DNA of 44,956 nt from an uncultured delta proteobacterium. GTDB taxonomy: Bacteria; Desulfobacterota; RBG-13-43-22. Location: NCBI GenBank assembly GCA_963743305.1, contig CAVUPH010000035.1, forward strand, positions 1-44,956, given 5' to 3'. Below the pieces are notes generated by a model. That model was given only the letters and a program-made list of their open reading frames with translations, searched no databases and was not told the origin of the DNA. The position numbers and the translations under genes were made by a program. Shown here one piece after another: positions 1-44,810 of the stretch (positions are counted from its first letter, which is position 1; the number at the start of each line of letters is the position of its first letter).

Positions 1-284
1 ACATGGTGGTGCTGGAACTGAAGTCCTTCAAGGCCTTCGGCAGATACAGGCGATCCTTTTTCGCCTTCCTTCTTGATCTCTTCCTTCAGCTCCGCCTTCT
101 CTGCCTGGGCCTGTTTACGGGCCTCTTTCATCAGCCCGTCCGCCTCTTCCTGGGTCAGGACGCCTTTTTGCTTCAGCAGATTAATCAGATGCAACGCATC
201 GATCTCGCCCGCCTGGACGCTAAAGCCGCTCCCCAGGACTATCAAAAAACACATTGCCCATACCGCCGTCCATAATCTTTTCAT
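1..284 (-). CDS. Putative outer-membrane porin, N-terminal part (cut by window edge); probably phosphate-regulated
   Basis: Hand translation from ATG 284 (purine-rich RBS region): MKRLWTAVWAMCFLIVLGSGFSVQA signal peptide, then LINLLKQKGVLTQEEADGL, typical of putative-porin N-termini. Divergent from pstS. Not in the ORF track. Confidence 0.55.
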   Translation of the reverse strand, partial: MKRLWTAVWAMCFLIVLGSGFSVQAGEIDALHLINLLKQKGVLTQEEADGLMKEARKQAQAEKAELKEEIKKEGEKGSPVSAEGLEGLQFQHHH

Positions 285-373
285 CTCTTCCTTTCTCCTT
301 TCTCCTTTTACCTCGATTTCAGATTGCTCCCTCAGGGGGAGGCCAATCCGCTTGGGAGACCACACTACGGAGA

Positions 374-417
374 GAAGGTTACAAACCGGTGAAGGGCGGA
401 TTAAATAATGTTTACAA
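374..417 (-). promoter_or_regulatory. Pho-box-like array for the porin gene
   Basis: Four 11-bp-period units on the minus strand (TTGTAAAcatt/ATTTAATccgc/CCTTCACcggt/TTGTAACcttc), then a TAGTGT -10-like hexamer. Resembles PhoB CTGTCAT repeats. Confidence 0.5.
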
Positions 418-430
418 TGAATTCTCGAAG

Positions 431-463
431 TTGTCACCTGACCATCATCATGCTGTTACCGAA
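431..463 (+). promoter_or_regulatory. Pho-box-like array upstream of small ORF 509-718
   Basis: TTGTCACctga/CCATCATcatg/CTGTTACcgaa with 11-bp period, followed by TATCCT. Confidence 0.55.
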
Positions 464-508
464 TCGGGCTATCCTCAATCGAAAAACCAACCCGAAGAAA
501 GGAAAGGC

Positions 509-718
509 ATGCTTCCCACCGTCAAAATTCTGCTCTTAAACCCCGACCTGGAAATTGTCTACCTGGTGACTGGAAAAGGCTTCCGCATCCGGTCTCAAAT
601 CCCCGGAGAAACCGCTTTAAAGTTGCTGGAAGGAAAAAACATCGATCTTATCCTGCTCCAATCGGCCGTTCCAGCGCCAACCGACGAAGAGGATGAGGCT
701 TTGGAGCAAGCCGCCTGA
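509..718 (+). CDS. 69-aa hypothetical protein, degenerate receiver-domain-like
   Basis: GAAAGGAAAGG RBS before ATG 509; VKILLL and IDLILL strands resemble REC beta1/beta3. Confidence 0.45.
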   Translation: MLPTVKILLLNPDLEIVYLVTGKGFRIRSQIPGETALKLLEGKNIDLILLQSAVPAPTDEEDEALEQAA

Positions 719-760
719 TCTTTGAAGCCCGGGGATGTGGAAGGAGGTGACGACCGGCAA

Positions 761-804
761 AAGTAATCGGCTCTTAACTCTGCTGTAACAGAACGGTAAC
801 AAAC
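761..804 (+). promoter_or_regulatory. Pho-box-like array upstream of pstS
   Basis: AAGTAATcggc/TCTTAACtctg/CTGTAACagaa/CGGTAACaaac with 11-bp period; TATCTT at 811-816. Confidence 0.65.
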
Positions 805-853
805 AAGAACTATCTTATAACCTAATTATTGAAATAGCTGAGGAGGACAAAAA

Positions 854-1751
854 ATGAGGAAAATAGTGGTTTCGCTTTTAATGACAATATTTTCAGGGGT
901 TTCGATCTTTTCCGGACCGGTAGTGGCCAAAACTTTCTTGCAGGTCAAAGGTTCGGACACGGAAGTGAATCTGGTTCAGCGTCTGGCGGAAAATTATATG
1001 AAGAAAGACTCCAATACGAGCATCGCCGTAACGGGCGGGGGATCGGGTGTCGGAATTGCCGCCATTATCAACAAGACGACCGATCTTTGCAACGCCTCCC
1101 GCCCCATGAAGGACTCGGAAATCGCCCAAGCCAAGGCCAACGGCGTCAATCCTGTCGGGGTGGCCTTTGCCGTGGACGGCCTCTCGGTAATCATCAACGC
1201 CAAGAATCCCCTCAAACACCTGACGACTGACTTGATCGGGCAGATTTACCGGGGGGAGGTTTCCAATTGGAAACAGGTTGGAGGCCCGGATGCGGCGATC
1301 ACCCTCTACGGACGCCAGCCGAATTCCGGGACCTTTGTCTTCTTTCGAGAACATATCGTCAAAAGCGATTATTCCAACAGGATGGACCAGATGAACGGTA
1401 ATGCCCAGATCCTGGAAGCGGTCAAGAAAGACGCCGGCGGAATCGGCTATGTGGGGATCGGCTACGTGGTGGATGACGCCGGAAAAGTCGTGGCCGGCAT
1501 CAACGTCCTGGAGGTGGCCAAGGATAGCCGCAGCACTCCGGCTTCCCCCTTAAAGCTGGAAAATATTCTCAGCGGCGCCTACCCTTATCACCCGGCCGCT
1601 GTATCAGTATTTTGACAAAAACAATCAGGCCAAGGTCCAAGGGTTCATCAAGTACGAGCTCAGCCCGGAAGGCCTGGCCATCACTAAGAAGGATGGCTTT
1701 TATCCCCTAACCGAGCAATGGAAGAAATACAATGCCCAGTTCGGCTTCTAA
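854..1751 (+). CDS. pstS: Phosphate ABC transporter substrate-binding protein (apparent frameshift near 1588)
   Basis: KGSDT, GGGSGVG and NSGT motifs; the C-terminus (RPLYQY...GF*) continues in another frame to TAA 1749-1751. Confidence 0.92.
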
Positions 1752-1767
1752 CGGCGATACGCTGGAA

Positions 1768-2674
1768 ATGCCCGGAATGAACAGGAACTGGCGGCAATTC
1801 CAGGATGCCTCCATCCACCGTTTTTTTCAGTTCAACGGGGTGCTGTCCATCCTGATCCTTCTGGGCATCTTCTTCATCTTGTTCAAGGACGGGCTGCCGG
1901 CCCTGCGTGATTTGGGGTTCGGCAGCTTCATTCGCATGACCTGGAACCCCACCTCTTTTGTGCTGGGAAACCTACGGCCTGGGGGCCATGATTATCAGCA
2001 CCCTGATGGTTACCTTTCTGGCCCTCCTCTTTGCTGTCCCGGTCGGCCTGGGCTGCGCCGCCTATCTTTCGGAGGTGGCCCCGAACTGGGTCCGTGAAAT
2101 TCGAAGCCGGTCATCGAAGTCCTTGCCGGGATTCCTTCCGTGGCTCTGGGGTTTCTGGGGATCGTGATCATCGGGCCTTGGATCGCCAGGCTCTTCGGCA
2201 TACCGAACGGCCTGAACGCTCTGAACGGATCCGTCCTGCTCGCGATCATGTCGCTTGCCCACCATCGTCAGCATCTCGGAAGACGCCATCGTTTCGGTGC
2301 CGCAGGAATTGCAAGAACGCCTCCCTCGCGCTCGGGGGCGACGCTCGCTGGCAGACTCTTGTTCCGCGCGTGACCCTTCCCGCGGCGTCATCGGGCATCA
2401 TCGCCTCGATCATGCTCGGCATGGGCCGGGCGATCGGCGAAACCATGACCGTGCTCATGGCCATGGGAAATGCGCCCGCAACCCCGCACGGGTATTCTCG
2501 ATGCGGTGCGGACCATGACCTCCACCATCGCCATCGAATTAGGGGAGGTCGGTTCGGGTCGGAGTCCATTATCACGCGCTCTTCGTCATCGCCTTCGTTT
2601 TGTTCACGATGACGTTTGCAGTGAACCTCGTCTCCGACATGGTCCTGGCCAAATACCAGGAAGTGGAACGATAG
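1768..2674 (+). CDS. pstC: Phosphate ABC transporter permease PstC (several frameshifts)
   Basis: Fragments across frames: YGLGAMIISTLMVT, IPSVALGFLG, LGMGRAIGETMTVLM; lies between pstS and pstA. Start approximate. Confidence 0.85.
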
Positions 2675-3540
2675 TGCACCTGAATAAAAAAGCAATTACG
2701 GAAAAAATCGGTTTTGCCGTGCTGGGGATCTGCGGTCTGCTGGTGGTTCTCACCCTTTTCGGAATCCTCTGGGATATCGTTTACCACGGCGGATCGGTGA
2801 TCAACTGGGAGTTTCTGTCCCAACCGCCCCGCGAAGGCATGACCCAGGGGGGCATTTTTCCGGCCCTTCTGGGAACCTTGCTGGTGAGCCTGATTACGGT
2901 ACTCTTCGCCGTTCCCCTGGGCATGTTCAGTGCCATCTATCTCAACGAATATGCCCACCAGGGTAAGCTGGTCCGCATGATCCGGCTGTCAATTCGGAAT
3001 CTTTCGGGCGTGCCCTCGATCGTCTATGGGCTCTTCGGAGTGGCGCTGTTTGTCCGGGTTTTACATTTCGGGGCCAGCATCCTCTCCGCCGGGATGACCC
3101 TGGGGCTATTGACGCTCCCTTGGACGATCACGGCCAGCGAAGAGGCGTTGAAGACCGTGCCCAAACCCTACCGTGACGGGGCCCTGGCCCTGGGGGCCAC
3201 CAAATGGCAGGCCATCCGCACCAATGTGCTGCCCTACTCCATCCCGGGCATGTTGACCGGGGCCATCCTGGGCCTGGCCCGAGCGGCCGGGGAAACCGCT
3301 CCCATCCTATTTACCGGGGCCGCCTTCTTCATCCCCGACCTGCCCAAGTCGCTGTTCGATCAGTTCATGGCCCTGCCCTACCACCTCTACATCTTATCGA
3401 CCCAACATCAGGACATCGCCCGGGTCAGACCGATTGCCTACGGCACCGCCCTGGTTTTGATCGCCCTCGTCCTTTGCCTGAACATGGTGGCGGTGTTGAT
3501 CCGCTATCATTTCCGAAAGAAAGCGCGACTGGGTCAATGA
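2674..3540 (+). CDS. pstA: Phosphate ABC transporter permease PstA
   Basis: [29 protein letters not shown] motifs; GTG start overlaps the pstC stop. Confidence 0.93.
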
Positions 3541-3553
3541 TGGTAAACATCGA

Positions 3554-4351
3554 ATGATCGAAAAACAACCAGGGGATGGCGGGGGATCCAATGGCCACAC
3601 GATTAAAATCAGCGTCAAAGATCTTGATTTTTATTACGGTTCTCAAAAAGCCCTGGAAAATATCAACATGGACATTCCTGCCCATCGGGTCACGGCCTTT
3701 ATCGGTCCCTCCGGTTGCGGCAAGAGCACCTTTCTGCGCTGTTTCAACCGGATGAATGAAACCATCCTGGGGACCCGAATCGAGGGAACGATTCTGCTGG
3801 ACGGGGAAAACCTCTATGGCCGCGATCTGGATGTGGTGGACGTCCGTCGGCGGGTGGGCATGGTCTTTCAGAAGTCCAATCCTTTTCCCAAGAGTATCTT
3901 CGACAACGTGGCTTACGGCTTGCGCATCAACGGGATGAAGGACAAACGGGAAATCGCCGAGATCGTGGAAAAAAGCCTGGTCGATTCCGCCATTTGGGAT
4001 GAAGTCAAGGACCGGTTGTATGAGTCGGCCCTGGGTCTGTCCGGCGGCCAGCAGCAGCGCCTGTGCATCGCCCGGGCCCTGGCCGTCCAGCCGGAAGTGA
4101 TCCTGATGGACGAACCGGCCTCGGCCCTGGACCCGATCGCCACGCAGAAGATCGAGGACCTGATTCAGAAGTTGAAAAAAAAATATACGATCGTCATTGT
4201 CACCCACAACATGCAGCAGGCCGCCCGGGTCTCGGATATCACCGCCTTCTTTTATTTGGGCAAACTGATCGAAATAAATGATACCGCCACGCTCTTCACC
4301 CGCCCCGAGCTGAGACAGACCGAGGACTACATAACCGGACGATTCGGATAA
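3554..4351 (+). CDS. pstB: Phosphate ABC transporter ATPase
   Basis: [26 protein letters not shown]-terminal [10 protein letters not shown]. Confidence 0.97.
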
Positions 4352-4459
4352 TCGCCCGTGATGCAGCCCAGACGCCCTCGTCCGTGTTCTTATCGGGCGG
4401 GAGAATCCCCGGGTTAAACTACTTTCACGCTTCCCAAGTGTCCTGCTGAGAATGGGGGT

Positions 4460-4586
4460 TTAATGCGGCGTTGCCCCCGGCCCGAAGCTTGCGGGGCCGA
4501 AGGCCCGTGCCCAAAAGGACTTTAGGGGTCCAATGGCCTTGTTGGGCGACGCCAACCGGGACATGGACCCACTGGGGTCAAACGCC
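4460..4586. repeat. Structured array-terminal module, copy A (homologous to 43879-44022)
   Basis: Shares ordered blocks TTAATGCGGCGT, GGGGCCGAAGGCCC, GTCCAATGGCCT and CATGGACCC with copy B; nested inverted repeats. Confidence 0.8.
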
Positions 4587-4645
4587 AGCGTCAGCCAGAG
4601 GCGGAGCGCCGTTTCCCGCCGATTGGCTGGACGCATTTGTTAGAG
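4577..4645 (-). mobile_element. Integron attC site of the DUF4145 cassette
   Basis: Minus strand CTCTAAC-aaat-GCGTCCAGCC...GGCTGACGC-tggc-GTTTGAC: R''/L''/L'/R' layout with one extrahelical base, just after the ORF stop. Confidence 0.8.
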
Positions 4646-4661
4646 CGAATCATGCGAAGAA

Positions 4662-5387
4662 CTAGCCCTTGTCGGTCTTGTTAGCCTGAGCGGCCTTTTC
4701 AGTGCTGCCGCTATTGGCCTTATTATCCCTTCTTTGGCGGGACAGCTTAACCTTCTCAGGCATGATGAACATATAGAGAAGAAACTTCGACATGAAGTCA
4801 TGTGCTTCAGCGACGTCACCACTATCGACATCTTTCAAACTGTCCTCGTCCGGATGAGCCCCCCAATTGCCAAATATCCGAATCTGGTGCGCCCAATCTT
4901 TGATGTCTTTTGGCAAGTTGGCCAACGACTCAATTTGCTGGATCAGGGCAAGTTTTGGATCCGCGCCAAGTTTTACGAGAGCGCCCTGCAGAGACCTCCG
5001 AAACATCGCGCAGCCAGCTCGGTGGGCTGCGATCGCTTTGCATTTCAACGCTTCTTGATAGTCCAAAAGAATTTCGCTCGGAATGAATTCTTTTTCCTCT
5101 TTGCCGAGCTGGTCGTCTAGGGACGTTGGAAACATCTCATCCCAGCCCTTGATTTCTAGATTCTCGTCGCTGCTATATGGATTCTGCCTGAGGTAAAACG
5201 TCTTCAGGATTAGTTTACGGCACGGCCTGCATCGAAACATGACGTAGAACTCCACGTCATTGTTCCGAAGTTTATGGCACTCGTTCCACAAGGCTTCGAT
5301 GTGTGCCTTAGCGCCGCAGTGCGGGCACAGTTCGATCAAGTCCTTGACGTGGGTGTTAATCGCCTCGCGCGCTTCTTTTAGTTTCAT
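4662..5387 (-). CDS. DUF4145 (HEPN-like) protein with N-terminal Zn ribbon; integron cassette gene
   Basis: CPHC and CRPC pairs; DYQEALKC...AMFRRSLQ; RIFGNWGAH RxxxxxxxH-type motif; flanked by attC sites. Confidence 0.75.
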   Translation of the reverse strand: MKLKEAREAINTHVKDLIELCPHCGAKAHIEALWNECHKLRNNDVEFYVMFRCRPCRKLILKTFYLRQNPYSSDENLEIKGWDEMFPTSLDDQLGKEEKEFIPSEILLDYQEALKCKAIAAHRAGCAMFRRSLQGALVKLGADPKLALIQQIESLANLPKDIKDWAHQIRIFGNWGAHPDEDSLKDVDSGDVAEAHDFMSKFLLYMFIMPEKVKLSRQRRDNKANSGSTEKAAQANKTDKG

Positions 5388-5415: not shown

Positions 5416-5475
5416 CTCTAACTCCGCTAATCAGCCGCGCGACTTCTTGCGTCGGCTGCATTAGCCTGGTTATGG
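5416..5475 (-). mobile_element. Integron attC site (60 bp) of the AIPR cassette
   Basis: Minus strand CCATAAC-cagg-CTAATGCAGCCG...CGGCTGATTAG-cgga-GTTAGAG: classic short attC with extrahelical G; overlaps the ORF 3' end. Confidence 0.88.
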
Positions 5476-6315
5476 GCTCCGACTGCTTTCTTCAAAATGT
5501 CCGTTTCCGACTCCGATTTATATTGTCGTTTGCTCAAATCTATGCCAGATGATTTGAAGATGTCAGATGCCCGCCGGAACAATGAAAGCGCCTGATCATC
5601 ATCGAGCAGTGCTTCTTTAAATTCCTCGCATTGTTTTTCTATTATGTTGCTATTCAGCGGACTGCTCTCGCTGCCCATATTAAGCATCTTGACCATCATC
5701 ATTAAGTGAAATCTTGCCTTTTTATTATCAGCAGATAGTTCTACACTTCTGAAAAATTGCTCAATTCGGAAATAGCAGAGAGCACTGACAAAGTAAGGTA
5801 GGAATTTGTGATCGGTGGCAAATATTTGGCCTTTGAATCTATTAACTATTGTTCCATAGTACCCTGAAACAAGATGGGGTGATTGCAAAAACATTGAAGC
5901 GAATGACTTTATCTGTATTGGTATAGTTATTATCTGAGTCCGTCTAATGCCGGGAAGTGAGTTATATTGTTGCGATCTTCTCTCGTAGTACAGTCTAATT
6001 CCACTCTTTTCTGCGTTGTAGTAAAGCTCGAGGCGCTTTTGGAAAACTCCGAGAGCCTCAAGTTGTTCGGTCTTTACTTCAGTTTGGCGGTTAGTCGCGA
6101 TCGTGATTTCTGATTTTATGTCGTCGCTTTCTGTAACAATTATTTTAACAGGGACATTCACTCCATCAATGCCAGAAATTCTCTGGCACTCGTGTAAAAC
6201 ATTGCTGGTTTGACAACCATTAACGATTTGGTAGTCACGAAGCGTGAATCGATTTCCCGCTGGGGTCAGTGATGATGCGACAACCGTAACCCCGTTGTTG
6301 AGCACACAGAAGAGA
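5427..6315 (-). pseudogene. AIPR family (abortive-infection-associated) protein, 5'-truncated by IS21
   Basis: FCVLNNGVTVV, YQIVNGCQT, ATNRQTEV and YYERRSQQY motifs; lower GC; reading frame ends at the IS end at 6316. Confidence 0.85.
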
Positions 6316-6405: not shown

Positions 6406-7203
6406 TTAGGGTTTTTCACCTCCTTTCGCAATAGTGTTTTTTGGTTTTTCGGGGAAGGGCCGGGGTGCCCGGTAGCTTTCCCCGTCCAGGACCACCCGGT
6501 AGGCCCCGTGGCGGAGACGATCCAGGGTGGCGGCACCTAAGAGGCGGTTGGGGAAGGCCTCGCCCCATTCCGAAAAGTCAAGATTGCTGGTGATGATCGA
6601 AGCCCGCCGTTCGTAGCGATCGGCGATGAGATCGTGAAAGTCCTCATCCTGGGGGGCCCGAATGGGCTTGAGGCCAAAATCATCGATGATCAAAAGATCG
6701 GTTTGGGCCAGGGACTGAAACCGGCGCTCGAAGGTGTTGGTGGCCCGGGCGGCCTGGAGCAGCCCCAGCAGTTTGCTTTGGGTGGTAAACAGAACGTCGT
6801 AGCCCTGGCGGATGGCGCAGTGGCCGAGGGCCTGGGCGATATGGCTTTTCCCGGTACCGGTGGGCCCGGCGATCAATACCGCGACCTTCTCCTCGAGGTA
6901 GCGGCCGGTGGCCAGATCCAGGATCAGTCCCCTATTCAGCGAGGGATTGAAGGCGAAGTCAAAATCCTCCAGGGTCTTCTGGTTGCGGAAGTTGGCCCGG
7001 CGGATCCGGACGGTCAGCTTTTTTTGGGAGCGCCGGGCGACCTCATCCTGGAGCAACAGGGCCAAAAAATCGGTATAGGCCAGTTTGTTTTCGATGGCCT
7101 GGCGGTTGCGGGCCTCCAGGGAATCGAGGATTCCCGAGAGACGGATCTCTTTCAACATGGGGGTCAAAGCAGGCATGGGATTCATCGGTACACCTCCTAT
7201 CAA
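6406..7203 (-). CDS. istB: IS21 helper ATPase IstB
   Basis: GPTGTGKSH, LLIIDDFG, IITSNL, LDRLRH. Confidence 0.96.
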   Translation of the reverse strand: MIGGVPMNPMPALTPMLKEIRLSGILDSLEARNRQAIENKLAYTDFLALLLQDEVARRSQKKLTVRIRRANFRNQKTLEDFDFAFNPSLNRGLILDLATGRYLEEKVAVLIAGPTGTGKSHIAQALGHCAIRQGYDVLFTTQSKLLGLLQAARATNTFERRFQSLAQTDLLIIDDFGLKPIRAPQDEDFHDLIADRYERRASIITSNLDFSEWGEAFPNRLLGAATLDRLRHGAYRVVLDGESYRAPRPFPEKPKNTIAKGGEKP

Positions 7204-8738
7204 TGCGCCAAGAGCGATCCGGCGTGGCGGCAGAATCGTCCTTGACCGGTATAGGTTTCGGAAAGCAGGTCGAAGGCCTGATCGGCTTGAGGCAGTTGAT
7301 CGAGGCCTTTCTTCAGGATCTGTTTGACCGTGCCGTATTGGGGCGTTTCAAAGGCTATGGCTCGTTGGCAGGCCCGTTCCAGGCGGAGATCGCCGTAACG
7401 CTTTCGGAAGCCGATGATCCCCTGGGCGGCGCGGAGATGATCCAGCACCCGATCGGCAAAGAGGGTTTCCATCAGGGTCAGGCAATAGGGACCCACGGCC
7501 GCGGCCTCCTTCAGGCACCACTGCGGGTCTTGCATCTTGTACGCCAGGGCATCGGGGGGCAGGTGTTCCGGGATCGTGGAGCGCTGGCCCGGGCGCCGCA
7601 AGCGGGGGTGGATGGCCACCAGGTCCAGGTCGCGATAGATCTTGACGGTCTGCTCAGCGGCCCGCAGCCATAACTCCCGATGGACCAACCGATAAGGAGC
7701 GGAGTAGAAGGCCTTCTCGAACTGGACATGGCAGTTGCCATGAAGCTTTAACTTGGCCCAGAAGCTCAGCTCCGGGGGATTAGCCGGGAGCGGCTGGAGC
7801 AGCAACCTTTCCGTGGCAAAACGATCCAGGGGGCGCTGCTGGGTGGTCCCGTGGATTCGGTTGCCGGCTGGTCCCAGGATCCAGGCCAGCAACTGGCGAT
7901 TGCCGTCGGGCACACTGCGGAAGTCGCGCAGGGGCATGAAGCGTTTTTTAAGATATTTAACCCCCGCCTCCACGATACCTTTTTTCTTGGGATCCCCCGG
8001 TGGACAGGGGGAGATGAGAAAATTATAGGCTTCGGCGGCATCCGCATAAGAACGCTGGGTCACCGGGTCATAAAAACAGGCCTTGGTGATGGCACATTTC
8101 GTATGATCGATAATCGTTTTACGGGGTACCCCCCCGAAGAACTCAAAGGCCCGACGGTGACAGCCCAGCCAGGTTTCGATCTTCTGGTTGGTGACGATCT
8201 CGGCGTACTGATGACGGCTCCAGGCCAAGGTCATGACAAAAAACCAGGTCGGGATCACTTGGCCGGTATACACGTCGATGATCCGGGGACCGGTCCCGAA
8301 GTCCACCTGGGCGGCTTCTCCGGGCTCAAAATCCAAGATCACGCTGGCCTTGGGCTGATGATCCGGAAGACGTTGGATGAAGCGGCGAACGGCGGAGTAA
8401 CTGCCGATAAAACCGTAATCCCGAGCCAGGGCCTCGTGGATAGTCGTCCCCTGGACGCCCTGCTGATGCCATCGCTGGATGTCTTGGGCATAGGGTAAAA
8501 CCAGGGAACCTTGGGCCGGTTCTTCGGTCTTACGGGTAAAAGCGGCGGCCAGGACGGCCTCTTCGGGAATGGGGGTTTCTGGGTTGAGCCAGCCCTGAGC
8601 CACAGCAACTTCTCGGACCTGGCCGGCTTTCTTCCGCCCCATCAGCCCGGCTCGGGAAATGGAACGGTCGGTTTCGCCCATACGCATACGGGCAAGGATC
8701 TGTCGATACTGGTGCATCTCGAACCTCCGATTACTCAT
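7200..8738 (-). CDS. istA: IS21 transposase IstA
   Basis: PGEAAQVDFG, AFEFFGGVP, KKGIVE, RIHGTT, FYSAPY. Confidence 0.96.
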   Translation of the reverse strand: MSNRRFEMHQYRQILARMRMGETDRSISRAGLMGRKKAGQVREVAVAQGWLNPETPIPEEAVLAAAFTRKTEEPAQGSLVLPYAQDIQRWHQQGVQGTTIHEALARDYGFIGSYSAVRRFIQRLPDHQPKASVILDFEPGEAAQVDFGTGPRIIDVYTGQVIPTWFFVMTLAWSRHQYAEIVTNQKIETWLGCHRRAFEFFGGVPRKTIIDHTKCAITKACFYDPVTQRSYADAAEAYNFLISPCPPGDPKKKGIVEAGVKYLKKRFMPLRDFRSVPDGNRQLLAWILGPAGNRIHGTTQQRPLDRFATERLLLQPLPANPPELSFWAKLKLHGNCHVQFEKAFYSAPYRLVHRELWLRAAEQTVKIYRDLDLVAIHPRLRRPGQRSTIPEHLPPDALAYKMQDPQWCLKEAAAVGPYCLTLMETLFADRVLDHLRAAQGIIGFRKRYGDLRLERACQRAIAFETPQYGTVKQILKKGLDQLPQADQAFDLLSETYTGQGRFCRHAGSLLAH

Positions 8739-9033: not shown

Positions 9034-9173
9034 CTTTAAATCTCCTGCTCTTCAGCCTTCCAACAAAAGGCCGGTTGATATTCATTTCCTTTCCTGCGCC
9101 AATCCTTTTCAGGTTACGCTGAAATATGAAAACTCCAGGGTTTAGTATGAAATAAAATAGCCCCAGCAAAGAC

Positions 9174-9270
9174 GTCATTGCGAGCAGAGCGAAGCAATCC
9201 CCATCCACAGCTTAGAGAGATCCGGAAGCCATCTGGGGGATTGCTTCGTCGCTCCACTCCTCGCAATGAC
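9174..9270. repeat. REP/MITE-like palindromic element family 1, full copy (97 bp)
   Basis: GTCATTGCGAG...GAAGCAATCCCC...GGGGATTGCTTCG...CTCGCAATGAC; same length as, and similar to, 21656-21752. Confidence 0.85.
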
Positions 9271-14439: not shown

Positions 14440-15226
14440 ACGGCGATTGGACCACCTGCTGTTGGAGAGGGGGCTGGCCACTTCCCTGGAAAAAGCCAAG
14501 GCCTTGATTTATGCCGGGGCGGTCTGGATAGACCGGACCCCGTCGGTCAAGCCCGGCCGAGCGGTATCCCTGGACGTCACTCTGGAGGTCAAGGAGCCGG
14601 AACACCCCTATGTAAGCCGCGGCGGGGTCAAATTAGCCGGGGCACTAGATCACTTTAACCTGCCCGTGGGAGGAAAAATCGCCCTGGATGTAGGGGCCTC
14701 CACCGGAGGGTTCACCCATTGTTTACTCCTGCGAGGGGCCGTCCGGGTCCATGCCGTGGATGTCGGGTACGGTCAGTTGGCCTGGACGCTGAGACAGGAC
14801 CCTCGGGTCCGGGTCCTGGAACGCCGCAATGCCAGGTACCTGAGCCTGGAGGATATCGGCGAAAAAGTCGATCTAATCGTGATCGACGCCTCATTTATTT
14901 CCCTGAGAATCATCATCCCTCCCCTGCTGGCCATCGTCAAGCCGGGAGGAGATATTGTGCCTTTGGTCAAGCCCCAATTCGAAGTCGGCAAGGGCAAGGT
15001 GGGGAAGGGAGGGGTGGTTCGTAATCCGGAAGATCGGAAAGAGGTGCTCCAAGCCTTGAACGACCACTTTGAAGAATTAGGTCTCAGGGTGGAGGGACCC
15101 CTGGAGTCCCCCATTTTAGGGGCTAAAGGAAATCAGGAGTATTTTTTTCATTTGAAGAAAGAAATTGACGGACTCGCAAAAAGTCCGTCAGCAACCCGAG
15201 CGCGATTAAGCGCCGGGCTGGGGTAG
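14420..15226 (+). CDS. tlyA: TlyA family RNA methyltransferase
   Basis: KRRLD S4 domain, YVSRGGVKL, DVGASTGGFT, KPQFE, GNQEY; probable GTG start at 14420. Confidence 0.93.
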   Translation: MAPPAAKRRLDHLLLERGLATSLEKAKALIYAGAVWIDRTPSVKPGRAVSLDVTLEVKEPEHPYVSRGGVKLAGALDHFNLPVGGKIALDVGASTGGFTHCLLLRGAVRVHAVDVGYGQLAWTLRQDPRVRVLERRNARYLSLEDIGEKVDLIVIDASFISLRIIIPPLLAIVKPGGDIVPLVKPQFEVGKGKVGKGGVVRNPEDRKEVLQALNDHFEELGLRVEGPLESPILGAKGNQEYFFHLKKEIDGLAKSPSATRARLSAGLG

Positions 15227-15320
15227 GGGTGGAACCATTTGAATTCACTTCAAATGGCGGGGGAGGGAAAGCCCCCCCGCCGAGCAGAAAGTCGCTTTTT
15301 GACTTTTTGCGAGGTCATCA
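15166..15320. repeat. Palindromic MITE/REP-like element family 2, overlapping the tlyA 3' end
   Basis: Terminal inverted repeats TGACGGACTCGCAAAAAGTC / GACTTTTTGCGAGGTCATCA. Confidence 0.65.
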
Positions 15321-15330
15321 GGATTGAATC

Positions 15331-26029: not shown

Positions 26030-26475
26030 AAAAGCCGGCTACCTTTTTTTGATTTTTCTTTGACCATCTCTTTTATTTTGTTAACAAAATCAGCCAACTC
26101 TTCCTCGGATAACTGACTGCTCAATGGAGATTCCAACAAGGATTCCATCACTTCGAGATTCGTGATTTTTTCATCCATGGCTTAATTAATTTATCCGCTC
26201 CTTTATAGAATAGCAGCGCTTAAAAAAAATAGCTATCCTATAGCCCGGTATTATTAAGAAATCAAGCATTTTATTCGGGTGACGAAACAGAATTATTTCC
26301 GAAGTGCTGGAGGATATTATCCACTCCTGGTGGAAGCCGGCCGGGAGTGGGCCCAGAAGTAAAGGTATGTAATCAAGACCTCCAGAAAACCCGGGATTCT
26401 ATGGGGGAAAAGTAGATCTCCGATGAATGATTAAGAACCCGTCAAGAAATAAGCTGTACAATACCGCTAATATCT

Positions 26476-26557
26476 CCGTTTATGCTGAGCCTGTCGAAGC
26501 ATTGCCGTATCGTTCACCCTTCGACTGCTCGACAGGCTCGCAGCTCAGGGCGAACGG
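26476..26557. repeat. REP-like palindromic element family 3, downstream of trpA
   Basis: CCGTTTATGCTGAGCCTGTCGAAG...CTTCGAC...GCTCAGGGCGAACGG. Confidence 0.7.
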
Positions 26558-26603
26558 TTGTAGGGTCGTTTGTCAAGGTTATTTGTTTACAGATCCTAAG
26601 CAT

Positions 26604-42370: not shown

Positions 42371-42465
42371 TTCCGATAAAAACATCGGAAGAGAATATGG
42401 AGGTTGATGAAGCGACGGTTAGAAAGAGAGTTGGAAAATGATTTGTTTGAAGCTCGATTTTGACT

Positions 42466-42480
42466 TCACCTACTACTCTT
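42466..42480 (+). repeat. 15-bp direct repeat, left copy
   Basis: TCACCTACTACTCTT, identical at 43819-43833. Confidence 0.7.
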
Positions 42481-42586: not shown

Positions 42587-43771
42587 TTACCACGGTAGGC
42601 CGTCTACGTAGCACCGCACCGGAAAATTGTTAAAAATAGCTGCAAAGCATTTGTTACAAGAGATGCAAGAGGCTTTTTCGACCTTGCCTTTCCGCAGGCG
42701 TTTGACTAAAAAAGGTTCTCGTATCAACGGGCGTGACATGGAAATAAAATCTGCCTCCCCATTACTTACAACCTCCTCCATCTCTTTCAAATTTCGGACC
42801 GCCCCCACAAGCATTAACGGGACATCCCCCAGAAAGGGCTTAATAATACTTGCTGCAGGTAAATGGTACAATGGCTGAAAGCGGCAGGGATCAATTTGCT
42901 TTTTGAAGACTATTTTAGCCACGGGCCTCATCCACATCGGTAGACCCCGGGCCAGATCGTTTATAGGGATCCCTCCTCGAACCGTATGAAAAGTGTACCA
43001 AGTCCCGCTTGATATTTCTAGAGCCGAGATCCCCAGTTCTTTTAACCAGCCGGCATAGCGGGCGGCAAGCTCTGGGGTGATGCCCGGCTTAGGAGTGAAG
43101 TCAGAGGTGTTTAGCTTGACCAGGATAGGAAATTCCCCCCCCACTTCGGCTTTGATGGCCAGGATGATCTCCTTAACAATTCGGAACATTTTTTCCGGTG
43201 ATCCACCCCACTGGTCCTGGCGACGGTTGAAAAAGGGGGATAGGAACTCGTTGAGAAGATAACCGTGAGCGCAATGAATCTGGAGCCCATCCGCACCTGC
43301 CTCCAATACACGTCGAGCGGCTCGTGCAAAGGCCCTAATGATCTCTTGGATGTCCTCCTCTGAGGCTGCCTTGGCCTTGTTCATGCTTACCGGGTCGCGG
43401 CCAAAAGAACTGGGGGCCAGTGGCGGTTGGCCAATAACCTTCTTGGGGCTCTGACGGCCTCCGTGGGCCAACTGAAAGGCGATGCGCCCGCCTTCCTCGT
43501 GAACCACCTCGACGATTTTCCTTAATCCGGGCACCAACTTGTCATGGTGTATTCCGGTCTGTCTTCCGATGGCCTTGCCTCTGGGGTGAATGTATAGATA
43601 ACCGGGGATGATTAGGCCCACTTCGCCTCTAGCCAGATTGCGGTAGCGGTTGACAAGTTCGTCCGTGACTTCCCCATCGGTTCCGGCCATGCACTCGTAA
43701 GTGGCCGAATGTACAAAGCGGTTTCTTACTTCTATCGGTCCTATGCGGTAAGGTTCAAAGAGCAGGGACAT
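42587..43771 (-). CDS. NADH:flavin oxidoreductase (old yellow enzyme family)
   Basis: RNRFVHSAT, QLAHGGRQ, HCAHGYLL, RQDQWGG, CISCNKC; start taken at MSLLFEP. Confidence 0.9.
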   Translation of the reverse strand: MSLLFEPYRIGPIEVRNRFVHSATYECMAGTDGEVTDELVNRYRNLARGEVGLIIPGYLYIHPRGKAIGRQTGIHHDKLVPGLRKIVEVVHEEGGRIAFQLAHGGRQSPKKVIGQPPLAPSSFGRDPVSMNKAKAASEEDIQEIIRAFARAARRVLEAGADGLQIHCAHGYLLNEFLSPFFNRRQDQWGGSPEKMFRIVKEIILAIKAEVGGEFPILVKLNTSDFTPKPGITPELAARYAGWLKELGISALEISSGTWYTFHTVRGGIPINDLARGLPMWMRPVAKIVFKKQIDPCRFQPLYHLPAASIIKPFLGDVPLMLVGAVRNLKEMEEVVSNGEADFISMSRPLIREPFLVKRLRKGKVEKASCISCNKCFAAIFNNFPVRCYVDGLPW

Positions 43772-43818
43772 AATCGCAGCTCCTCTATGTTTCCAATATT
43801 TTGGCCTTATAAGTGATG

Positions 43819-43833
43819 TCACCTACTACTCTT
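43819..43833 (+). repeat. 15-bp direct repeat, right copy
   Basis: TCACCTACTACTCTT. Confidence 0.7.
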
Positions 43834-43878
43834 GTATTGGAACTTGACTAGAGGTGAATGATTACGGGTTGAAAGTTA

Positions 43879-44022
43879 TTAATGCGGCGTCGACCCGTGG
43901 CCCGTAGCTCGCGGGGGCCGAAGGCCCATGCGAGCAAGAGACATCGGTGTCCAATGGCCTGGTTGGCGCAGCCGTAGGCGGAGCCAGCCGGGCCATGGAC
44001 CCGGTAGGGACAACGCCGCATT
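43879..44022. repeat. Structured array-terminal module, copy B
   Basis: Outer inverted repeat AATGCGGCGTCGACCC / GGGACAACGCCGCATT (14/16) enclosing two hairpins; homologous to 4460-4586. Confidence 0.8.
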
Positions 44023-44039
44023 GGCGATGCCGTAGGCGG

Positions 44040-44126
44040 CGCCAACGTCGCAAATAAGGCGCTGGGCCTTCCACGTTACATAAACCGCAGAGTTATAACC
44101 CCGTCGCCTTGATTTGATTGTTATGT
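44040..44126 (-). mobile_element. Integron attC site (87 bp)
   Basis: Minus strand ACATAAC-aat-CAAATCAAGGCG...CGCCTTATTTG-cgac-GTTGGCG; extrahelical C; the ORF stop TAA lies inside R''. Confidence 0.85.
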
Positions 44127-44810
44127 GATTTTGTCATGGATACAACTGATAGATGGTTCATCCTTCATCACCTGTAATGGGAATGCCTCTTGTTGCCTCA
44201 AGACGTAGAACTCCCATTCCTTCTTGAATCCGTCACCAGTTGGGGGAGACTTGTACACCTCGTTGAAGTCGGAAGCCATAAGATCTAAGTAATCTATGCC
44301 TGCCGTTTGATAATACTGGGTAGCCGTTGCTAGCCGCGTAGAGTCAGAACCTTCTGGAACGGCAAAGGCAACAAAGTATTTGGCGGAGATCGGACCCAAA
44401 TAGCCTTGGTGGTTCAGGTGTGATGACCGATAAAGGACGATCTTTTGAATAAGCGCCTCCGGATATTTTGTGAGCCATCGCCTGGCATGGAGCTTTAGTG
44501 GATTGATGTCAAGACTCTTAAAGATCTCCGAATTACCTTCACTAATGATTTCAGACGACGATGGCATGGTGGGCTGTGCACATGTTTTCGGTAGTTGGCC
44601 TTTCAATGATTCAATTCGCTCCTTCAACGAGGAATTTTCAGAGGTAAGCGCCTCAATCGTCCTTTTTGAATACCACCGTGCCAAAAGGTAACCGAAACCT
44701 CCTACGACAACAGCACAGATCGCAAATGAAAAAGGTGCGCCTGAAATGAGTCCCCACTCCTTCTCAAATTGACTTATGACTGAGACTGGATCGAAGCCAC
44801 TCATTCCCAC
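44121..44810 (-). CDS. Hypothetical membrane-anchored protein; integron cassette gene
   Basis: GGGGAGG RBS and GTG start; one N-terminal TM then a short coiled coil; lower GC; bounded by attC cores. Confidence 0.7.
   Translation of the reverse strand: MGMSGFDPVSVISQFEKEWGLISGAPFSFAICAVVVGGFGYLLARWYSKRTIEALTSENSSLKERIESLKGQLPKTCAQPTMPSSSEIISEGNSEIFKSLDINPLKLHARRWLTKYPEALIQKIVLYRSSHLNHQGYLGPISAKYFVAFAVPEGSDSTRLATATQYYQTAGIDYLDLMASDFNEVYKSPPTGDGFKKEWEFYVLRQQEAFPLQVMKDEPSISCIHDKIT

Follow-up and report, generated by a model that had tools for sequence, protein, structure and literature searches.

The non-coding module that occurs twice in the window (the whole stretch of DNA analysed, 44,956 nt, on contig C35 of the 4.9-Mb assembly G000) is best explained, with a probability of roughly 0.7, as an integron cassette that carries no gene, is nearly all recombination-site DNA, and owes its movement and recombination to the integron integrase of its lineage. 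The module family that includes both copies (A and B) is here named E. Its likely substrate form would be the folded bottom strand, which is the plus strand of the window, and three G|TT points, located at the start of the unit, in its left L-type box and in its inner hairpin, would join it to neighbouring attC or attI sites in reactions presumably catalysed by IntI. Use of these three points would give rise to the long, short and truncated forms of the module. Copies of E are bounded by crossover points within arrays, contain no ORF or coding signal, and occur as paralogues that are conserved across the lineage. Against the cassette reading stand the AAT/ATT cores of E, its paired spacer, the failure of an attC covariance model to recognise it, and the division of the sole integrase gene of the genome over two reading frames. 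To our knowledge, AAC/GTT core triplets are near-universal among attC sites.

The two loci are summarised in Table 1. The attC sites are oriented with minus-strand cassettes, which makes the minus strand of the window the cassette strand and the plus strand the bottom strand, as the initial annotation had assumed. Array A contains two attC-model matches in addition to E, and no match to the integrase model TIGR02249 is found on C35, so that the array has the composition of a CALIN (at least two attC sites and no intI nearby). Folding of the attC site of the DUF4145 cassette identifies an inverse core ending in AAC, a stem with one extrahelical base and a core G|TT. The G of this core (4583) is fused to copy A, which supplies the TT, and the join of copy A to its neighbouring attC at a GTT that was noticed in the initial annotation is real. 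It uses the inner GTT of the left arm of E (site 2 below), and the final A of the A|TT end of copy A is position 4464. The attC site of the AIPR cassette leads directly into the next cassette with no E between them. The 5' end of the AIPR gene is apparently cut by the IS21 element, which is located within array A in the AIPR cassette; xseA, also on the minus strand, lies beyond it. On the other side of the array, the pstB junction x|TTAAACCCCC is common to the window, contig C21 and the related genome G004.

Table 1. Features of the two E loci in the window, by position in the whole stretch.
Feature	Position	Strand	Evidence and remarks
pstS-C-A-B phosphate transporter operon, core flank of array A	854..4351	+	
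Copy A of E	4464..4582	-	5'-truncated on the cassette strand; boundaries from sequence
Canonical attC of the DUF4145 cassette	4577..4645	-	R1 match 4583-4645, 41 bits, E-value 8.7e-6 (training-set site)
DUF4145 domain protein, cassette gene	4662..5387	-	Pfam PF13643, E-value 8.6e-16
Canonical attC of the AIPR cassette	5416..5475	-	R1 match, 39 bits, E-value 2.8e-5 (training-set site); fold
AIPR (abortive-infection type) cassette gene	5427..6305	-	Pfam PF10592, E-value 2.7e-33, profile positions 33-241 of 308
IS21-family insertion sequence (istB, istA)	6406..8738	-	Pfam PF01695, PF00665, PF22483
OYE-type FMN oxidoreductase gene, downstream of copy B	42587..43822	-	Pfam PF00724
Conserved cassette-start module	43822..43882	-	starts with the TT right after copy B
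Copy B of E, full long form, 163 nt	43883..44045	-	from the TT after G at 44046 to A at 43883
attC-like site of the 229-aa ORF cassette	44040..44126	-	R1 match, 37.9 bits, E-value 5e-5, outside the training set
229-aa cassette ORF	44121..44810	-	no Pfam match

At the second locus, the G|TT of the attC-like site of the 229-aa ORF cassette joins copy B. Copy B had first been placed at 43879-44022; its homology to copy A holds, while its extent had been set too short, as the unit runs to 44045. The OYE-type oxidoreductase gene downstream is patchily distributed, with a close match in one of the 20 other genomes. The motif of approximately 15 nt that closes the cassette-start module recurs just downstream of this gene, at about 42460-42480, and its presence on both sides of the oxidoreductase suggests that the gene may have been inserted into the cassette-start module. 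A second pstSCAB locus at C21:39333-43822 is 87-97% identical to window positions 1-4509, with the homology stopping inside E, and is a paralogue or else a strain-level variant within the assembly (contamination estimate 5.7%).

Copies A and B share 73% identity over 127-141 nt (E-value 2e-13) and are homologous, and an nhmmer profile of the two identifies 11 copies in the genome under study at an E-value of at most 1e-10, with two each on contigs C35, C26, C2 and C7 and one each on C32, C25 and C21. The module is found in 20 of the 21 genomes of the family, which is the whole class in the collection, at 1-12 matches per genome; the search for further copies in the genome and its relatives that the initial annotation had suggested thus finds them. 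A 21-letter pattern from the end of E retrieves 41 stretches when searched against one genome per species of all prokaryotes, each selected with the ATT end inside the pattern, and nearly all of these derive from assemblies of uncultured 'Deltaproteobacteria' or Thermodesulfobacteriota. The 101 matches collected represent 74 non-redundant copies. In several relatives, copies of E are clustered in the same orientation at a spacing of 0.9-3 kb, and the genes between them, on the strand opposite to the profile, include antitoxins, AbiV, HepT, Mrr fragments, a cupin and a Y1 transposase. Such same-orientation clusters with accessory genes between the copies are cassette arrays.

The conservation of E does not follow genome boundaries. 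For 37 of 45 copies the closest neighbour is located in a different genome, often of a different genus, at 90-96% identity, and mean identity is 78% within genomes and 80% between them. Across genera, copies of E are up to 92-96% identical, whereas pstB DNA is 76-82% identical between the same genera. This pattern is indicative of sequence constraint or of a cassette pool common to the genomes, not of recent bursts within them. The suspected lack of an Rfam counterpart holds as well, with no match at the gathering score in the window and none on E at an E-value of up to 10 in four loci.

The boundaries of E coincide with crossover points. On the cassette strand the 3' end is sharp and reads A|TT: among 45 copies collected by homology only, 38 end in xTT (36 ATT, 2 GTT), and the four bases that follow are R (35/38), R (28/38), R (24/38) and Y (28/38). 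The 5' start follows the G of sequence-diverse canonical attC sites or of the attI module described below, which precedes 16 of the 74 non-redundant copies. The 5' junctions fall into three classes. Site 1 is the leader start, which among 35 aligned copies reads GTT 15 times and ATT 3 times, site 2 is the GTT of the left inner box and is used by copy A and by a copy on C26, and site 3 is a GTT or GTC inside the second hairpin. Junctions at site 3 produce the short form of approximately 105 nt. The 'permuted' pair of half-sites that the initial annotation had read in the inner hairpin is present, and its GTT is the one that serves as the junction in about a dozen copies, as counted by eye.

The neighbours of E can be exchanged at these points. 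The module of approximately 60 nt that follows copy B recurs in the genomes G018 and G015 with the same TT start, there following the G of canonical attC sites. Since the same module is found after the A|TT of E and after the G|TT of an attC, E behaves as a discrete gene-less cassette. In the genome G001, what comes after the homologue of the 229-aa ORF cassette is not E but a canonical attC and then a further cassette. Together with the recurring module, this indicates independent assortment of E and its neighbours at crossover points. Neither tandem E-E pairs, nor orthologous positions with and without E, nor circular or excised copies were seen in the assembled sequences. A hybrid site in G004 (L064:6211-6264) combines the left half of a canonical attC with an E-like right end that includes the A|TT.

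The anatomy of E corresponds to that of a recombination site. Read on the cassette strand, the module begins with a core-type start (the TT of G|TT), a 13-nt mini-loop, an inverse core ending in AAT, a 5-nt spacer and a GTT-type box, and continues with the inner (second) hairpin, a GC hairpin, the complementary box, a spacer and A|TT, which is the box order of an attC. The mini-loop is bounded by a core/inverse-core pair, and the tip of the second hairpin repeats the arrangement of core, 13 nt and inverse core, there with AAC. If E is circularised, its first six bases and final A complement the inverse core over 7 bp, a complementarity that is 7/7 in 10 and 6/7 in 7 of 35 copies. The consensus of the 74 copies places a second box pair (L''/L'), GTT-type and its complement, 5 nt inside both ends. 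Compared with the attC pattern RYYYAAC/G|TTRRRY, E contains AAT/ATT triplets and retains RRRY after the TT; the attC-like outer stem with AAT/ATT cores that was first described for copy B is thus a property of the whole family. The ends of E form terminal inverted repeats of approximately 16 nt. Long (~165 nt), short (~105 nt) and truncated forms such as copy A occur, and over this length of 105-165 nt the module is non-coding: copy B is overlapped by only two ORFs, of 65 and 70 aa, which cross the palindromic stems and have no Pfam match. From the junction classes and the sequence parallels, the long form can be read as two nested empty cassettes, an arrangement that would account for the use of site 3.

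Copy B is predicted to fold strongly both as RNA (-93.2 kcal/mol, z -7.05, matched by none of 200 shuffles) and as DNA, with the plus strand at -51.5 kcal/mol (z -6.9) and the minus strand at -42.8. The truncated copy A folds marginally better than its shuffles (z -2.2 as RNA and -2.0 as DNA, 5 of 200 as good in each). Folding predicts every element of the initial annotation, namely its outer stem, its GGGCC-GAA-GGCCC hairpin and its long second hairpin; the GAA loop itself is found in 26 of 36 aligned copies by eye and is not invariant. A likeness of the first hairpin to domain V of group II introns was considered and dropped on inspection by eye, and Rfam returns no intron match. In an alignment of 36 copies, 88.5% of the cells of a 62-pair structure are paired, compared with 33-40% when the partners are slid. 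Compensatory changes, proposed earlier as a check on the fold, occur in 11 pairs and do not exceed the shuffle control, in which 155 of 500 shuffles reach 11. The core of E is a predicted three-way junction with an almost completely paired stem. The spacer columns are paired in 25-33 of the 36 copies, no extrahelical base is present in the predicted fold, and the stem is irregular only at an A.G mismatch, seen in 32 of 36 copies; an alternative fold, read by eye, features an extra G in the inner half-site.

The two strands differ in how well they fold. Over 30 pairs in the 36 copies, the plus strand contains 118 G.T cells and 19 A.C cells, and one G.T pair is conserved in 34 of 36 copies. This excess makes the bottom strand the better-folding one. 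A strand bias of this kind is expected for an attC-type substrate, and an antisense RNA would leave the same pattern.

The association of E with attC sites was assessed with R1, a home-made covariance model of 22 canonical attC sites, which was used in place of a rule-based attC scanner that had too little sensitivity and specificity. Among 16 R1 matches in the genome under study (E-value of at most 1), 6 abut E (3 training-set sites and 3 others); in five relatives, 12 of 67 matches at an E-value of at most 0.01 abut E (8 from the training set); and in five E-rich arrays searched with filters off, 9 of 15 matches at an E-value of at most 1e-3 do so (training-set share not separated), with all of these adjacency counts inflated because most training sites take their last four bases from E. 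The adjacency far exceeds chance for about ten 150-nt sites per genome, and the enrichment of copies beside attC sites, proposed earlier as a check, is observed. E is always found in an integron context and is non-autonomous, as had been proposed: it starts after the G of an attC or attI and abuts attC sites above chance. The module does not itself score as an ordinary attC. R1 gives no match on E in the genome under study, and its best hit inside E in the E-rich arrays is 12.4 bits (E-value 1.1). A role for E as an obligatory partner of each attC was ruled out, with 55 of the 67 attC-model matches in the relatives lacking E.

The integron platform of the lineage is represented in the genome under study by a single integrase gene at C17:137519-139072, which is frameshifted into two reading frames (258 + 100 bits to TIGR02249, cut-off 265) and encodes a long N-terminal extension. 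An intI gene sought for the arrays of the window is thus present in the genome, though in two frames and not on C35. Contig C17 ends approximately 140 nt upstream of the integrase gene, within an AT-rich attI/promoter module that contains a crossover G|TT and, as read by eye, a sigma-70-like promoter. The gene that flanks the platform on C17 also occurs in G004, where the attI module comes after it with no integrase and leads into an array holding E. In G020 and G007 an intact homologue of the integrase gene adjoins attI. The attI module occurs 1-5 times in 17 of the 21 genomes, and 30 such loci were examined; downstream counts cover 29 of the 30, with C17 of the genome under study excluded as it stops at the contig end. 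The modules mostly precede ordinary cassette starts, and about nine adjoin remnants of the first 30-60 codons of the integrase gene. Both features identify the module as a true attI and indicate that the lineage contains many decayed integron platforms, which makes it useful for the study of integron decay. E follows the attI module at 3 of the 29 loci, which rules it out as the usual first cassette after attI.

A tentative elaboration is that E is a specialised parasite of the integron system, or a helper to it, in the form of an attC-only mini-cassette whose weak A|TT would fix it in place while its three G|TT points accept cassettes. Copies at secondary sites might then nucleate integrase-less arrays, and the long form would consist of two nested empty cassettes that fold together. 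That E mainly docks cassettes, having been inserted at a secondary site where its G|TT points seed and terminate integrase-less arrays, is unlikely. In its favour, copy A closes its array on the pstB side, and the neighbouring cassette is joined to it at an internal GTT. The similarity between contigs C35 and C21 runs through pstAB and over the first ~50 nt of E before the two diverge, which places a breakpoint within E. At the limited sensitivity of the model, none of the 11 copies in the genome under study has an attC-model match downstream of it. Insertion of cassettes by the integrase at genomic GWT sites is documented in the part of a recent report drawn on here (10.1101/2022.09.11.507474), which makes a docking role possible. 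The relatives speak against it, as E is located internally in their arrays and also directly after attI, 55 of 67 attC-model matches are not followed by E, and only 3 of 29 attI-module loci then continue with E. The initial view of the module as a distal cap at which both arrays end is not supported in general either: the unit at the pstB junction of G004 is not E, which lies 2.5 kb further in, and copy B precedes another cassette-like unit, the one known to follow attC sites in G018 and G015.

An RNA-level function is less probable still. A reading of E as a structured sense-strand 5' leader or insulator, which travels with the downstream cassette gene and acts on stability, translation or read-through, is very unlikely. 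It draws on the Shine-Dalgarno-like motif and start codon that are found 20-45 nt after the end of E, within a limit of 46 nt, in 42 of 67 copies, and on the sigma-70-like promoter of attI, identified by eye, that reads into E where E comes first. The strand asymmetry described above argues against a leader, as it is the antisense (plus) strand that folds better; in addition, E lacks a U-run terminator, the genes downstream of it are mutually unrelated, and copy A is the last unit of its array and faces a convergent core gene. The better folding and G.U tolerance of the plus strand, together with conservation across genera above that of pstB, would suit a cassette-borne antisense small RNA gene transcribed from that strand. 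This reading is even harder to sustain than that of a leader, since no conserved promoter or terminator was noticed by eye within E, the flanks vary among copies, there is no Rfam match even at an E-value of up to 10, and the starts of the truncated forms coincide with GTT points, as recombination would produce, and do not suggest an RNA unit.

A repeat driven by a transposase (REP/RAYT, a non-autonomous partner of IS110/IS1111-attC elements, or a MITE) is the least credible reading, because the terminal inverted repeats of E, the 333-aa Y1 transposase gene between two copies in G004 and the existence of IS110-family genes in the genome under study are outweighed by ends that are integron crossover points with no target duplication seen, by a 27-nt palindromic unit that is not repeated genome-wide outside E, and by a left inverted-repeat arm that, at up to 2 mismatches, flanks no larger element. 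The HUH or IS110 partner suggested in the initial annotation was sought in the genome under study, and none of its 16 Y1 or 5 IS110 matches shares a contig with E. The 333-aa Y1 (IS200-like) transposase is much longer than IS200 TnpA and is encoded in a cassette at L064:7485-8483 of G004; its counterpart in the genome under study is located at C24:103855-104853, among 16 matches of which many are fragments.

The repeats of Vibrio cholerae are long attC sites of 123-128 bp that belong to a sedentary chromosomal integron. As a gene-less cassette, E resembles such long chromosomal-integron attC sites in its length of more than 100 nt, lineage-specific conservation, branched centre and favoured bottom strand, and the order of inverse core, spacer and second box, then second box, spacer and core is common to both. 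Unlike them, E is a separate unit, and the gene cassettes in its arrays carry short, diverse canonical attC sites; its predicted fold also lacks unpaired spacers and extrahelical bases, and A replaces G at the crossover.

A closer parallel in kind is provided by the conserved multi-copy non-coding cassettes of Vibrio integrons, for which a selfish or a functional role has been proposed (Boucher et al. 2006, PMC1382264); any host role for E is likewise putative. As far as the portions of that paper used here describe them, E shares with these cassettes the absence of an ORF, cassette boundaries, multiple copies, identity above 80% between species and restriction to a single lineage, as well as the pattern of conservation described above for E (PMC1382264). 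It differs from the Vibrio cassettes covered there in being practically site only, with ~13 nt of other content and AAT/ATT terminal triplets, in the nested second pair of half-sites that leads to long and short forms, and in that many of its copies are located next to core genes, in small clusters without an integrase. Promoter activity has been demonstrated for gene-less Vibrio cassettes, according to the parts of that study considered (Blanco et al. 2024, PMC11014356), whereas none is evident in the GC-rich sequence of E. The view that the module is not a described family consequently stands as far as Rfam is concerned and has to be qualified by these Vibrio cassettes (PMC1382264).

Both arrays of the window are integrase-less and located among core genes, and in this they resemble the CALIN/SALIN arrays and attG insertions of 10.1101/2022.09.11.507474. 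Insertion at secondary GWT sites, as treated in that source, would account for the dispersal of E. The CALIN and attG cases concern gene cassettes, and a recurring dedicated gene-less unit such as E is not described in the sections of that work consulted (10.1101/2022.09.11.507474). The kind of element that E represents is thus known, and its architecture, the multiple junction points in use and the dispersal beside core genes are new.

The origin of arrays away from an integrase and the function of non-coding cassettes are open questions in integron biology, for which E offers a clean natural case: pure site DNA with a variant crossover triplet, located beside core genes and conserved beyond a housekeeping gene across four genera. 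Genomes in a single group of uncultured, sulfate-reducer-like bacteria carry about ten copies of E each, and the module allows a direct test of recombination at A|TT and of empty cassettes as docking sites.

Other repeats are also found in the window. Two different families of approximately 165 nt, at 26426-26601 and 15162-15327, each have dozens of copies in the genome at 84-97% identity; the former features MITE-like terminal inverted repeats, and neither matches Rfam. A palindromic repeat of approximately 115 nt at 9154-9270 has copies on C3, C6 and C21, and one by the copy of E at C26:70184.
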